A stretch of DNA of 64,000 bases from an uncultured Gemmatimonadota bacterium (GCA_964626665.1 CAZVGK010000015.1:1-64000), one strand, 5' to 3'; numbered from the stretch's first letter, positions 9,806 through 17,363 are shown. The notes: generated by a model from the sequence alone, not told the origin. Translations and numbers: made by a program.

Positions 9806-10202
9806 TAAAGGGTTGTAGGTGTAATGATTTATCTCAAATGGAGAGGGGATAATTTCTCTCTCCATTATTTTTTTTGAGCCCTTATCTAAATTACTCACAA
9901 ATTTAGTATCGAAGGTTTTACTACTTTTCCACATTATAGTTTGCACATTGCTACTTCAAGTGTCATTGCGAAGAGCTTAACGGCGAAGCAATCCCGTAGT
10001 CTCAACTTGAAAACGAATGGTTCCTTTCCCACTAAAACGAGATAACAGAACCCCCATTCTGCCACCTTCCTCTCTTGTCCTCAAGTGAGGGCATCTGACC
10101 GCTTACGAGGTCTCTGAACGGCATCTTATGAGCAATTCGGCCTAATTGGTAATTGAAGGCTTGACCCCATTTCACCCCAAGCATCTCAGTTTGACAGAAT
10201 GC

Positions 10203-10469
10203 CTATTTAGTTTTAGCTTCTATTTCTTGCCAGAAATCCTTATGCGATACACCACCAGTCTTTTGAATCTGCTGGCGACCACGAGCCAAAACGGCTTGAA
10301 ACTTGGGCGAATAGGCCAATACTAGCCGATCTATCTCTTCCTCATCGGTTACCCCTAATAATACGGCTACCGGTTTACCATTTTTGGTAACCACAATCGG
10401 CCCCTTTTCAGATTCCTTTAAGTAGGCACTAAGATGTGCTTTTATTTCGGCAATGGGTGCAATCTTCAT
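10203..10469 (-). CDS. Phd/YefM family antitoxin
   Basis: EIKAHLSAYLK...PIVVTKNGKPVAVL; SD GGAGG. Confidence 0.9.
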   Translation of the reverse strand: MKIAPIAEIKAHLSAYLKESEKGPIVVTKNGKPVAVLLGVTDEEEIDRLVLAYSPKFQAVLARGRQQIQKTGGVSHKDFWQEIEAKTK

Positions 10470-10534
10470 AGATTTACCTCCTCTCCGCCAATGAACAAGC
10501 GATTCCCTTGTTTAATACCTATAGCCAGAATAAT
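10466..10534 (-). pseudogene. 3' remnant of a RelE/ParE-type toxin
   Basis: Translates IILAIGIKQGNRLFIGGEEVNL* with ATGA overlap on the antitoxin start; no 5' part. Confidence 0.65.
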
Positions 10535-10557
10535 AAAATAGGGACACTTCCCATTTT
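10535..10557. repeat. AAAATAGGGACACTTCCCATTTT hairpin; related copies at 10721-10742 (inverted), 12883-12907, 16828-16854
   Basis: Direct sequence comparison. Confidence 0.8.
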
Positions 10558-11006
10558 TAAATCATTTTTCTTGCACTGCCATGTGATTTGGGTATCAATT
10601 TTCTTTGCCCAATTTTCACCAACAAGATTCTCATAAAACTGTATCCCTTTGAGACGCCTTGCCTTTGAGAGAGACTCTTCCTTCCCGGCGAAAGGGAAAG
10701 CATAGTGAGCCCTGGCGGGAAAAATAGGAAGTGTCCTCATTTATCCTTTAAAATAAGAGGTGGGAGGCGTCCCAAGCAGGTGAGGGCGCTGCGGATGTCC
10801 GCATTCCTGCGTTTACAACGCAAAGACCTAACGCCTCGGAAAGTACACCTGGAACCGATACTTGGTCTTCGGGCTTACCTCCCACCTGATAAAATCATAA
10901 GCTGCTATTTCTCCAAGTTCTTTCGACGGTTGCCAAGATAGCCAAGTCGAATAGGGTTCAAATCTAAATTTAACCCACATTGTTTGGGGTCTGGTTGAGC
11001 GAATAG

Positions 11007-11354
11007 TTATGCGGCCTTAATCCATTTTGCGAGCTTTTGCTTTAGTCTGAGGAGGCGATCCTGGTTTATTTGGCCCAATTTTCCAATGAGAATCTCTCCA
11101 TCTACGACAGCGAGCCTGCTGGTTCGAATAACGCTTGGAAATTTCAACCCAGATTGCAAGTGATCCGAATCTTCTGAAGTGATAACTTCATCCAGTTCAG
11201 GTAGTTGCTGATGAAGCTGGGAAGAAATCATGCAAATAAGCCAATCATCATATTCCCCAGGCAATCTGCGCAAAACAAGGACTGGACGAAACTTTCCGGC
11301 CTCTTGATCAGTTCGTAGAAACTTGAATAAAACAATTTGTCCTTCGGAAATCAT
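11007..11354 (-). CDS. PemK/MazF family toxin
   Basis: GQIVLFKF...GKFRPVLVL...ICMISS...GLKFPSVIRTSRL. Confidence 0.88.
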   Translation of the reverse strand: MISEGQIVLFKFLRTDQEAGKFRPVLVLRRLPGEYDDWLICMISSQLHQQLPELDEVITSEDSDHLQSGLKFPSVIRTSRLAVVDGEILIGKLGQINQDRLLRLKQKLAKWIKAA

Positions 11355-11563
11355 GAGAAAATTTCCTTAAGATCATCCAGTGAATAGGGAGACTTTTCGT
11401 CTTCCATTCCTCGCATCGCAGAAGACAGAGAAAGGTCTGTCCAGTCTTTTCTCTCTTGTTTTTCTACATTTGAGCGTAGATATTCCACAAAATCAAGAAC
11501 TTCTACCTGTTTAGATTCCGGCAATGCTTGTATATTTTTGATAATCTTCTCTGCCAAGCTCAT
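11351..11563 (-). CDS. DUF2281-like antitoxin
   Basis: LPESKQVEVLDFVEYL, YSLDDLKE; ATGA overlap with the toxin. Confidence 0.8.
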   Translation of the reverse strand: MSLAEKIIKNIQALPESKQVEVLDFVEYLRSNVEKQERKDWTDLSLSSAMRGMEDEKSPYSLDDLKEIFS

Positions 11564-16500: not shown

Positions 16501-16725
16501 AAGGGATAGTCCATCGTTGAATTTCACCGTCACCCCGGGCTCAATGGTCAAGGTTGCTCCATCGAGCACCTGCACTGTACCCACCACAATATAGGGACTC
16601 CCAGCGATCGTCCAGGTGGTATCAGAGGTGATATTGCCACTAACCTCCGTATCGGCAATGGCTTGCTGAAGAGCAAAACTAAAGAGAAATATCATTGCAA
16701 CGAAACCTACTGTTGCCTTTCTCAT
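13519..16725 (-). CDS. Secreted right-handed beta-helix protein with Fn3-like domain and T9SS/FlgD-type CTD
   Basis: Signal peptide; tandem [18 protein letters not shown] repeats; [11 protein letters not shown]n3; [12 protein letters not shown]. Confidence 0.88.
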
Positions 16726-16775
16726 CTTGTTCCCCTCCTTCCTATTTGATACGCTACCTATTTAGCGTTTTAAGC

Positions 16776-16826
16776 TCACTTCATCAAAACCATTCTCCCT
16801 GTCTCCACAAAATCCCCGGATTTCAA
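16776..16826 (-). pseudogene. 3'-terminal remnant of another CTD-bearing gene
   Basis: LKSGDFVETGRMVLMK* versus [17 protein letters not shown] at 13519; shared TGTCTCCACAAAATCCCC. Confidence 0.7.
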
Positions 16827-16983
16827 TAAAGATAGGGACACTTCTCATATTTTTCTAGGCAAATTCGGGGAGCTGCCCATTTTGTATCCTCTAACAGTCC
16901 TCTCTAAGTCCGTCAGGGCAGGAACCCTGACGGCACAGGCGCTTTCAATGTGACGGAAAGGAAAAGCCAGCCTGCTTTAGCTC

Positions 16984-17160
16984 GATCCTTCGGCAGCCCG
17001 GCTATCCTGGGTTATTGAGCTCCGGCTCAAGAATGTATGCCCAAGTCCCGCGGCTTTGTTCCTCCCGATTTCCCCTCACCATACTTCGTTCTGCGGAAAA
17101 AATATGCTTTGTCGCCATCGGAATCTTAATGAAGATAGTAAATTAAATCCTCTTGGTCAA
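16984..17160 (-). promoter_or_regulatory. Promoter plus structured leader, copy B (c-di-GMP-I/GEMM-like variant)
   Basis: TTGACC-17-TATCTT; ACAAAGCCGCGGG...GATAGCCGGGCTGCCGAA resembles the GEMM-I 3' half. Confidence 0.5.
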
Positions 17161-17363
17161 GGATTTTTTTGACGATTTAACTGAACCCCTCTAAAGTCGC
17201 CATAAAGCTGGTAGCACAGGACAATTCCATTTTTGAACGCAGATGAACGCAGATTGCCAGATTTTAGGTATTGGCTTTCTGCGGGTATCAACGAAAACCT
17301 GCGTCCTGATTAAAGGTTCTCTCATTCTTAATTCTACATTCTACATTCTTCATTCTCTCCTCC

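Follow-up and report, generated by a model that had tools for sequence, protein, structure and literature searches.

We have analyzed a tract at 9.9-17.4 kb of a 64-kb stretch of DNA, referred to below as the window, which lies on contig C15 of the genome of an uncultured salt-marsh bacterium (G000). Downstream of a gene for a Sir2/CobB-type NAD-dependent deacylase, this tract carries promoter and leader units that stand before unrelated genes, among them toxin-antitoxin (TA) pairs. An earlier note on this DNA had seen in the layout a possible scaffold that captures foreign DNA. On our best reading the tract is a hotspot in which a series of riboswitch-type leader units decays and recombines, overlain by repetitive extragenic palindromic (REP) sequences with their REP-associated tyrosine transposases (RAYTs), and by repeats resembling miniature inverted-repeat transposable elements (MITEs). 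The new features are a remodelled leader family, similar to the cyclic di-GMP type I (c-di-GMP-I, or GEMM-I) riboswitches, and its frequent placement before type II TA-like pairs. The genomes used for comparison include two congeners, G002 and G001 (completeness of the latter, 90%), and two members of another genus in the same phylum, G003 and G005.

Genes and modules of the tract

The genes and the promoter and leader units are listed here in the order in which they follow the Sir2/CobB gene. Bit scores of leaders refer to model R1, a covariance model built from 10 leader copies.

17364..18104, minus strand: Sir2/CobB-type NAD-dependent deacylase gene (Pfam SIR2, E=9.9e-44), the conserved upstream anchor of the array
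17132..17165, minus: sigma-70-like promoter of module 1 (TTGACC, 17 nt, TATCTT; 9/12 consensus), ending 5 nt before the leader model start
16992..17126, minus: leader 1, predicted riboswitch-like RNA derived from c-di-GMP-I (133.8 bits)
16955..17003, minus: predicted intrinsic terminator of leader 1 (fold of -22.7 kcal/mol, then a U run); its 5' strand is the last conserved leader segment
16776..16826, minus: remnant of a C-terminal sorting domain (CTD) of the type IX secretion system (T9SS), last 16 codons and stop
13519..16725, minus: cargo 1, gene for a 1068-aa beta-helix surface protein with a T9SS sorting tail (Pfam Beta_helix, Ig_Rha78A_N, Por_Secre_tail)
13082..13110, minus: sigma-70-like promoter of module 2 (11/12 consensus, TG extension)
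12985..13075, minus: leader of module 2, a deletion derivative (5' start and terminator region kept, ~100 nt of the core missing)
12320..12804, minus: cargo 2, a 72-aa open reading frame (ORF) in the antitoxin position and an 89-aa ParE_like toxin
11818..11846, minus: sigma-70-like promoter of module 3 (looser pattern only; direct repeat D5)
11677..11811, minus: leader 3, of the leader 1 family (122.2 bits), terminator lost (none by the hairpin and U-run criterion)
11007..11563, minus: cargo 3, DUF2281 antitoxin and PemK/MazF toxin (Pfam)
10742..11006, no strand: 265-nt tail 3' of PemK, kept in G002; contigs of three marsh runs have 27 nt in its place
10203..10469, minus: Phd/YefM antitoxin gene (Pfam/NCBIfam), without a recognisable toxin partner
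10086..10167, no strand: segX, a unique 82-nt segment (89% identity to L009:9825-9909), which in G002 comes after a different TA pair

The cargo genes of the array all lie on the minus strand, and the identities first given to them were borne out: PemK with DUF2281, the ParE_like pair, Phd, and the CTD remnant with the 1068-aa gene. The Sir2/CobB gene that precedes them scores 257 bits with NCBIfam PRK00481.1-3 (cut-off 243) and shares 74% DNA identity with its counterpart on contig C93 of G002. The CTD remnant is 84% identical in DNA to 13519-13569, has eight blastx matches to CTD ends and is abutted by a copy of the junction motif described below. By DNA comparison the 1068-aa gene has no counterpart at the G002 locus, and the cargo 2 pair has a DNA match in none of 30 relatives. 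In cargo 2 the ParE_like toxin matches Pfam PF24732 (E=5.6e-13) and overlaps the 72-aa ORF by 4 nt; that ORF was assigned to no family in Pfam or NCBIfam. DUF2281 and PemK likewise overlap by 4 nt and are 87% identical in DNA to G002; this PemK is the sole PemK gene found by a Pfam search of G000. Small overlapping type II antitoxin-toxin pairs with recognised families are thus present as DUF2281/PemK and ParE_like, and Phd stands alone. A toxin remnant that had been placed beside Phd could not be recovered, since the ORFs there (10828-10980, minus; 10705-10941, plus; 10032-10184, minus) yield no Pfam family. We also dropped a second CTD remnant after PemK: the BLASTP hint (E=0.003) was not backed by blastx against 1148 C-termini, with no match at E<=1.

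The recurring minus-strand modules that the earlier note described are real and beyond chance. Leaving aside the internal repeats of the 1068-aa gene, the largest direct-repeat families of the tract are pieces of these modules, and leaders 1 and 3 share 76% identity (17100-16980 and 11782-11680; direct repeat D4). The layout is nevertheless not uniform, as the module 2 leader is a deletion derivative to which model R1 gives no match even with its filters off (the best other match in the window has 10.2 bits, E=0.9). Global alignment of this leader with leader 1 joins the first ~12 nt and the terminator region, with a score of 36 against a mean of 14 for shuffled sequences (sd 5, max 32). Two of the proposed sigma-70 promoters, at 13110 (11/12) and 17160 (9/12), are matched well and the third, at 11846, by a looser pattern only; taken together, promoter-like sites are no more frequent in the region than expected (16 versus 13.5 +/- 3.6).

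The leader RNA family

By model R1 the family is confined to the genus: G000 has 16 matches, G002 has 18 and G001 has 3, and 58 other genomes were without any. Nor did a strict leader pattern add members, either in wider genome contigs (the contig of G002 only) or in metagenome contigs (three contigs, 99.9-100% identical to G000). One of the 16 matches in G000, on contig C42, is a canonical c-di-GMP-I riboswitch (25.7 bits with R1, 65.7 bits with the Rfam model). One member in G002 reaches 68 bits with the Rfam c-di-GMP-I-GGC model (RF03167; gathering score 59), and four others score 20.6-28 bits on the same Rfam clan. Judged by sequence, the family is one that grades from a recognised riboswitch into remodelled forms.

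In ViennaRNA folds of the window leaders, a longer pyrimidine/purine helix, whose 13-nt loop is conserved, takes the place of the first hairpin and its tetraloop. A GNRA-capped hairpin 1 was looked for and not found, the Rfam alignment leaving a 2-nt loop in that hairpin. The second hairpin, with a bulged A and a AGCCGGGCUGCC 3' strand, is present in module 1; over 31 members it is 69% paired, and one subfamily lacks compensation in it. A new long-range helix, H0, pairs the extreme 5' end of the leader with an internal AUCGGGAG segment. In an alignment of 31 members the pairing of H0 amounts to 82%, and 7 of its 8 pairs have changed on both sides; helices other than H0 are weaker (60-75% paired). 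This alignment was fitted to model R1, so that the pairing counts lean its way. The covariation score of H0 is 0.231, compared with a mean of 0.167 after shuffling, and none of 500 shuffles scored as high.

A promoter-like site of the form TTGACA, N16-18, TAnnnT lies 5-19 nt upstream of the leader in 26 of the 31 members, and a predicted terminator (hairpin and U run) follows in 26. The conserved 3' strand of the aptamer-like domain serves at the same time as the 5' strand of the terminator; in a 10-copy alignment the terminator helix is 86% paired and has changes on both sides at 6 of 11 pairs. Such an expression platform, overlapping the 3' strand of the aptamer, is present in module 1 and absent in module 3.

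The genes that follow the leaders fall in unrelated families. There are surface or secreted proteins with signal peptides (Beta_helix, Laminin_G_3, FG-GAP, LVIVD, BNR), an IS110 transposase after one leader, and a variety of TA-like pairs: DUF2281/PemK (twice), Unstab_antitox with a frameshifted ParE-like ORF, DUF433/DUF5615, a small ORF with Asp_protease_2 (twice), an antitoxin-position ORF with PIN, and HicB-like. All five leaders that lack a terminator precede TA-like pairs. The recurrence of the leader before unrelated genes has the appearance of a riboswitch-type regulon.

Two further arrangements were seen at leader loci. Tandem leader pairs, ~330-390 nt apart and each with its own promoter and terminator, stand before one gene set at G000:C49:3001-3474, G002:C114:1285-1746 and G002:C2:8879-9400. 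At G000:C4:80891-81868 an antitoxin-position ORF and PIN pair lies between the leader and a gene for an LVIVD-repeat surface protein, and at G002:C2:9269-10513 a related LVIVD gene comes directly after the leader. The comparison of these two loci suggests that a TA cassette was inserted between a leader and its original gene.

Dispersed repeats and transposase genes

When 9-19.3 kb is mapped by BLAST depth over the genome, nearly all non-coding stretches match 10-50 other genomic places; the pieces are therefore not specific to the tract. The repeats other than promoters and leaders are as follows.

17314..17357, minus: AT-rich GAATGTAGAAT-type dispersed motif (E5), ~34 BLAST matches genome-wide
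17206..17316, minus: copy 1 of the AACGCAGAT element (E1), a ~95-nt dispersed repeat with inverted GGACGCAGAT/ATCTGCGTCC arms
16907..16939, no strand: GTCAGGG..CCCTGAC hairpin repeat (E3), an exact 23-nt inverted match to 11970-11992
16825..16853, no strand: junction motif/REP copy (direct repeat D6 and motif search)
13427..13459, no strand: 15-bp hairpin repeat with CGCAGAT/ATCTGCG arms, terminator-like, 60 nt past the 1068-aa gene (~30 copies)
13167..13266, minus: E1 copy 2, with the flank beyond the E1 edge in common with copy 1
12879..12907, no strand: junction motif/REP copy, terminator-like on both strands (direct repeat and motif search)
11911..11992, minus: E3 hairpin and 5'-truncated E1 copy 3 (E1 part 11911-11971), with the same truncation in G002
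10531..10559: junction motif copy (direct repeat D6)
10528..10742, no strand: doublet of two inverted junction motifs ~160 nt apart (second copy inverted at 10720-10742), resembling a REP doublet forming hairpins (REPIN)
9925..10100, no strand: two more high-copy hairpin repeat families (~29 and ~47 BLAST matches)

The junction motif has the core ATAGGGACACTTCC(C/T)AT between A and T runs. It was located at three of the four places proposed for it (16828, 12883 and 10535); at 11605 there is no match with <=2 mismatches. Three matches in the window compare with 0.66 expected, a number that 6 of 100 shuffles also reach. Genome-wide, with <=1 mismatch, G000 has 58 copies, G002 has 24 and G001 has 3, and the reversed control gives no match; two genomes of another genus have 3 one-mismatch variants, and none was found in 26 further genomes. 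Looser matches lie mostly outside called ORFs of >=100 aa (53 of 61) and in both orientations, and most copies do not adjoin a leader or promoter. Several pairs in G000 are inverted and about 200 nt apart. The doublet of the window, of which an 83% identical copy occurs at G000:C40:21245-21466, begins exactly where homology to G002 stops (10742).

The earlier note had supposed that a HUH/RAYT-type enzyme encoded elsewhere would be tied to this motif, and the search for one was positive. Two genes on contig C21 (25817-26482 and 28857-29522), 98% identical to each other, encode a 221-aa protein, and both are bracketed by exact 23-nt inverted copies of the junction motif. The proteins match Pfam Y1_Tnp with 60.8 bits and NCBIfam REP_Tyr_transpos with 78.7 bits (cut-off 80, E=3.9e-22), compared with 21.1 bits for transpos_IS200. 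An HIH triplet and a Y..NP motif can be seen in the translation, and we take these, in part after Di Nocera et al. 2013 (PMC3733652), to be the catalytic motifs. Orthologs with 56% identity occur in the other genus at G003:C289:645-1310 and G005:C46:7735-8400, 18 nt from a one-mismatch variant of the motif. On this evidence the junction motif is a REP sequence tied to a putative RAYT-type enzyme encoded on another contig, and activity of the C21 RAYT may have spread it. Three other Y1 genes in G000 have flanking inverted repeats of their own; those of one resemble the GTCAGG..CCTGAC hairpin class and those of another the GAATGTAGAAT motif near E1.

The region around the C21 genes (23900-29600) contains the two RAYT copies 3 kb apart, around Phd/ParE, DUF433 and RelE-like pairs and with 12 junction motifs, as well as a RAYT N-terminal fragment of 31 codons (27506-27598). 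It may be either a recent duplication or a composite structure. Elsewhere, at G000:C58:3346-4317, a 334-aa Y1 transposase has 21-nt GGGTCAGGTCTTCATTCTACA repeats on either side in inverted orientation; in length it agrees with the TIRYT class described in PMC3733652.

The AACGCAGAT elements are present at the three places first proposed, all on the minus strand. The window contains 13 occurrences of the sequence GAACGCAGAT (<=1 mismatch), where 2.87 would be expected, and none of 100 shuffles reaches 13. Copy numbers of E1 are 18 in G000 by nhmmer and, by BLAST, 19 in G000, 5 in G002, 1 in G001 and none in 28 other genomes. The alignment of the copies has a sharp 5' border, and their orientation to neighbouring genes is random (convergent, divergent and co-directional alike). 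A TTGACA promoter follows E1 only in the three window copies; 15 further copies lack it. E1 copies 1 and 2 are 94% identical over 35 nt that reach past the E1 border, and this similarity beyond the edge points to segmental duplication and not to separate insertions. The three modules of the window are, by their sequence similarity, local paralogues, with module 2 as a deletion derivative. E1 itself is, by its non-coding nature, inverted ends, sharp borders and lineage-specific copy number, a candidate MITE/REPIN-like repeat, separate and specific to the genus. None of the eight Y1 genes of G000 is flanked by E1. A parent element was sought among pairs of E1 ends 150-4000 nt apart and rejected, as the genes between such ends are ordinary ones and the excess of the 10-mers is only mild.

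Several minor observations concern these repeats. The E3 hairpin has ~15 BLAST matches and also comes after the terminator at several other leader loci. The arm heptamer of the hairpin repeat at 13427-13459 and ~30 other places (CGCAGAT/ATCTGCG) is the same as that in the E1 arms, and E1 may be built from this REP class. A common nested palindromic insert of ~70 nt is carried by 4 of 18 E1 copies (G000:C17:18688, C7:51513, C26:47891 and C18:3246); it has CCCCGTTAGATAA-type inverted ends and separates the two tandem ATCTGCGT boxes, and it resembles a smaller mobile hairpin element that E1 would afterwards have taken with it. The window has a second cluster at 42875-43344, of five ACGCAGAT-type decamers on both strands. 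At G000:C5:59431-60560, part of which reads as N, there are seven tandem ~161-nt units, each with an AT-rich leader-like stretch with a GAATGTAGAAT-type motif and a 37-nt repeat of the type found in clustered regularly interspaced short palindromic repeats (CRISPR), and ordinary repeat-spacer spacing begins at ~60300. This looks like a CRISPR array with a multiplied leader-repeat unit.

Variation among relatives and competing explanations

The locus in G002 (contig C93) begins with Sir2, followed by E1, a promoter and leader A, then Unstab_antitox with a frameshifted ParE-like ORF, segX and hairpins; truncated E1, a promoter and leader B come next, and then DUF2281-PemK, the 265-nt tail and unrelated DNA. 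The 1068-aa gene, module 2 with the ParE_like pair, the junction-motif doublet and Phd are missing, and the order of the PemK block and segX is opposite in the two genomes. Leaders A and B are 94% identical to each other and 71-79% identical to their G000 counterparts, and the two G000 leaders are 67% identical to each other; the high identity within G002 points to gene conversion or recent copying between units. The PemK cassette stands behind the same leader in both species and the adjoining doublet is found only in G000, so that the REPs appear to be later additions, not insertion joints. Four pairs of leader loci with any conserved flank could be compared between G000 and a congener. Conservation extends to both flanks in one pair (C5:12.6 kb versus G001), to the upstream flank only in two and to the downstream flank only in one.

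Population variation was sought in contigs of four salt-marsh DNA runs at >=88% likeness; uncovered parts, and joints with sides of <30 nt, were not taken as evidence. In three runs 10737-11005 is replaced by 27 nt (joint 10736 to 11006; sides 49/66/205 nt). Other joints fall inside repeats: 13113 to 17259 (sides 36, 89), 11950 to 13305 (side 21) and 11955 to 17276 (sides 27, 31). A hybrid of leaders 3 and 1 is formed by the joint 17023 to 11709 (side 40). These joints hint that the units recombine. The cargo is different in the congener and apparently also in the marsh populations, with breakpoints that lie in repeats, as would suit homologous recombination and indels associated with REPs. 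The earlier note had asked whether cargo varies at fixed junctions. Cargo does differ behind conserved modules in the congener, with two breakpoints at junction motifs; the shared PemK cassette beside a doublet that only G000 has does not fit.

We think it probable that the tract is a plastic spacer region downstream of Sir2/CobB on which three independent repeat systems are superimposed, the independence of the three classes being indicated by their different copy numbers and distributions. Each leader unit would then combine a promoter of the sigma-70 type with a leader RNA of ~135 nt that descends from the c-di-GMP-I fold. Transcription would stop at the terminator unless the leader takes an alternative fold, presumably when it binds a cyclic-dinucleotide-like ligand, and would in that case read through into the genes that follow. 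Only module 1, before the adhesin-like gene, would be intact; module 2, before a TA cassette, would be without the leader core, and module 3, having lost its terminator, would read through constitutively into DUF2281-PemK. The REPs would form short hairpins with A and T runs, able to act as bidirectional terminators, and E1 would by chance have lain upstream of the ancestral unit and been copied along with it. The variety of cargo could have three sources: the leader regulon, with 16-18 sites per genome; TA cassettes and REPs inserted into permissive spacers; and homologous recombination between direct-repeat units, which would delete, duplicate and reorder what lies between them. The sequences themselves show the family memberships, the copy numbers, the promoter and terminator signals, the flanking of the RAYT genes and the differences between genomes; the ligand-dependent switching of the leader, the activity of the RAYT and the shuffling by recombination are steps that we infer.

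A number of observations weigh against parts of this reading. Leader 1 scores 24.8 bits with the Rfam c-di-GMP-I model, below the gathering score of 35, and leader 3 has no Rfam match at E<=1. The RNAalifold consensus over 10 copies is almost without structure (-1.7 kcal/mol), after which hand-drawn helices were tested instead; among these, pairing reaches only 69% in the P2-like helix, which would be the competitor of the terminator, and only 60% in the inner hairpin. Transcription start and termination sites of the leaders are predicted signals. Genes begin 50-650 nt past the terminator, so that the leaders could be free-standing small RNAs, and an AUG-started ORF is found in 25 of the 31 leaders, which leaves room for a leader-peptide mechanism. 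On the side of the repeats, G002 carries 24 REPs, yet its best RAYT homolog is only 35% identical, and the REP has neither a GTAG nor a CGTC tag, its foot reading ATAG; according to part of PMC3733652, GTAG is the tag on the REP that the E. coli RAYT cleaves. Most of the marsh joints have sides of <40 nt at 88% likeness, and such joints are often artefacts of repeats or of other organisms. Finally, four Pfam searches gave 34 TA-gene matches in G000 (PIN 15, ParE_toxin 13, PhdYeFM 5, PemK 1), of which 8 are <=400 nt from a junction motif, as against 2.6% of ORFs of >=100 aa (binomial p 2e-6). These 8 represent 5 separate loci, and 4 of them are in one C21 RAYT cluster. A reading in purely independent layers leaves this enrichment beside REPs unexplained. 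Of the 34, 2 also lie <=1.2 kb downstream of a same-strand leader, compared with 0.33% of all ORFs. Both enrichments may reflect a common preference for permissive spacers, and they are also what sustains a bolder reading.

An alternative is that the leader is not a ligand sensor, and is instead a free-standing small RNA family of ~170 nt or a leader-peptide attenuator, in which a ribosome on a short ORF ending at or inside the terminator would block termination. Several observations speak for this alternative, which is unlikely: the leaders have their own promoter and terminator in the 26 of 31 members noted above, ORFs of 32-80 codons are carried by 21 of the 31, H0 joins the stretch immediately 5' of the AUG to a GGGAG segment inside the leader, and long REP-filled gaps precede the next gene. 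A conserved small protein was considered and dropped, because the ORFs cross the conserved core in different frames (17 in frame 1, 5 in frame 2 and 3 in frame 0, with no AUG in 6 leaders) and no peptide sequence is conserved. One member of the family is moreover a true c-di-GMP-I-GGC riboswitch whose promoter and terminator are laid out in the same way, and the overlap of the terminator 5' strand with the conserved 3' aptamer strand is that of riboswitch expression platforms. Somewhat more doubtful is a cassette array driven by recombination, in which RecA-type recombination of direct leaders would loop out a circle of leader and cargo that could re-enter at any of ~16 leader sites, so that each cargo would come to lie behind a leader, in effect an integrase-independent cassette system. 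The 94% identity of the G002 leaders against 67-79% for other pairs, the different order of the PemK block and segX, the hybrid-leader and deletion joints inside repeats, the synteny break at the leader in 3 of the 4 leader loci with any conserved flank, and the TA-like pairs after all five terminator-less leaders would all suit such an array. But any dispersed repeat recombines, and nothing shows selection for this role; just 4 orthologous locus pairs are comparable, the C5:12.6 kb locus is conserved on both of its sides, the joints are short-sided, and neither a circular form nor duplicated cargo was seen.

A bolder reading seems improbable to us. Here the leader would be a new, remodelled c-di-GMP-I class that wires type II TA and defence-type cassettes as well as adhesins to a second messenger, its ~16 copies would serve as landing pads, and cassettes headed by a leader would leave as loops and return through homologous recombination, perhaps with the aid of RAYT nicks at the REPs that cluster near TA genes. 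If this were true, the tract would be a working integrase-independent cassette array. Least credible is the dedicated scaffold of the earlier note, made of the AACGCAGAT element, promoter, leader and junction motif, with a HUH/RAYT enzyme that inserts foreign DNA at the motif behind a ready-made promoter; we regard it as very improbable. Each of the three repeat classes forms a family of its own; a junction motif is missing from module 3, most motif copies are away from any leader or promoter, and E1, oriented at random, occurs 15 more times without a promoter. The existence of RAYT genes flanked by the motif, its position next to the CTD remnant, the G000/G002 homology edge beside it at 10742, the 269-nt replacement in three marsh runs, likewise at the motif, and the TA genes of four Pfam families near it (8 of 34, in only 5 independent loci) had all spoken for the scaffold. 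Nothing, however, ties the RAYT to cargo capture; the PemK cassette has the same place in both species whereas the motif doublet is specific to G000, and the RAYT literature, in the portions of it relied on here, has these enzymes moving REP/REPIN units and does not describe gene capture (PMC3116915, PMC3337134, PMC3733652). The idea of a gene-capture machine does not hold up. What the tract offers, under the reading that we prefer, is a compact example of REP/RAYT repeats, a multi-copy leader and TA cassettes making a recombination-prone hotspot.

Chromosomal integron arrays consist of co-oriented, unrelated small cassettes, many of them toxin-antitoxin, which are parted by a recurring repeat and differ in content between close relatives. 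The window array is similar in its co-oriented, unrelated small cassettes and recurring repeat. Unlike integrons, however, its recurring unit is a promoter and leader 5' of the cargo and not a recombination site behind it, and its breakpoints are imprecise. The integron reading was also rejected on gene content: the genome has 16 Phage_integrase (tyrosine recombinase) matches, none of them on contig C15.

The repeats bear a closer resemblance to the REPtrons formed by REP/REPIN and RAYT, as presented by Bertels & Rainey 2011 (PMC3116915), in PMC3337134 and by Di Nocera et al. 2013 (PMC3733652). Common features are a short extragenic hairpin repeat in tens of copies and both orientations, inverted doublets, a Y1/HUH gene bracketed by inverted repeats, and REP_Tyr_transpos as the best NCBIfam model. 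The differences are the ATAG foot in place of a GTAG/CGTC tag, a doublet spacer of ~160 nt, two RAYT copies (98% identical) where one is usual, an NCBIfam score 1.3 bits under the equivalog cut-off, and the presence of repeats in G002, where no close RAYT was found. As in the mosaics of E. coli known as bacterial interspersed mosaic elements, again following part of PMC3733652, nearly every spacer from 9.9 to 18.4 kb consists of several hairpin repeat families with 10-50 copies each; here, unlike there, a regulatory RNA family is interleaved with them.

The leaders share with c-di-GMP-I and c-di-GMP-I-GGC (RF01051, RF03167) the 3' half ACAAAGCC ... AGCCGGGCUGCC, a terminator platform that overlaps the 3' strand, and many copies per genome before surface or adhesion-type genes, and one family member passes the RF03167 threshold. 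They depart from c-di-GMP-I in the replaced first hairpin and in an added long-range helix that reaches back to the 5' end; the window copies stay under the gathering score, and one leader subfamily has no P2 pairing. A c-di-GMP-I fold with its first hairpin replaced would be a natural candidate for altered ligand specificity. The riboswitches of Clostridioides difficile prophages are similar in that a c-di-GMP-I-type leader stands before a TA system on variable DNA, going by part of PMC11477304. In that case, as the same part reports with reference to Peltier et al. 2020, the antitoxin is an antisense RNA of a type I system and the riboswitch promoter is dispensable. The pairs described here are protein-protein (type II) pairs of at least 5 different families. 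Should the leader sense a nucleotide messenger, riboswitch control in this genus would extend to type II TA-like pairs from at least five families; our literature search found no report of such control of type II pairs, the type I case of C. difficile being the nearest in the sources consulted (PMC11477304, in part).

The neighbourhood of the tract is variable as well. Upstream of Sir2, G002 continues with a homolog of window 25356-25986 (25.4-26.0 kb), and the block between them in the window, 18105-25350, is therefore specific to G000. This block contains a gene for a 928-aa DUF4062/AAA_22/NACHT-like protein (19247-22033), has a G+C content of 0.54-0.57 compared with ~0.45, and is probably a defence-type insertion. 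On the other side of the tract, G001:C3 joins homologs of window 311-2360 and 9209-9806 directly; the gene for a 1187-aa T9SS protein (4947-8510) and its neighbours are absent from G001, and window 2360-9209 is another variable block.

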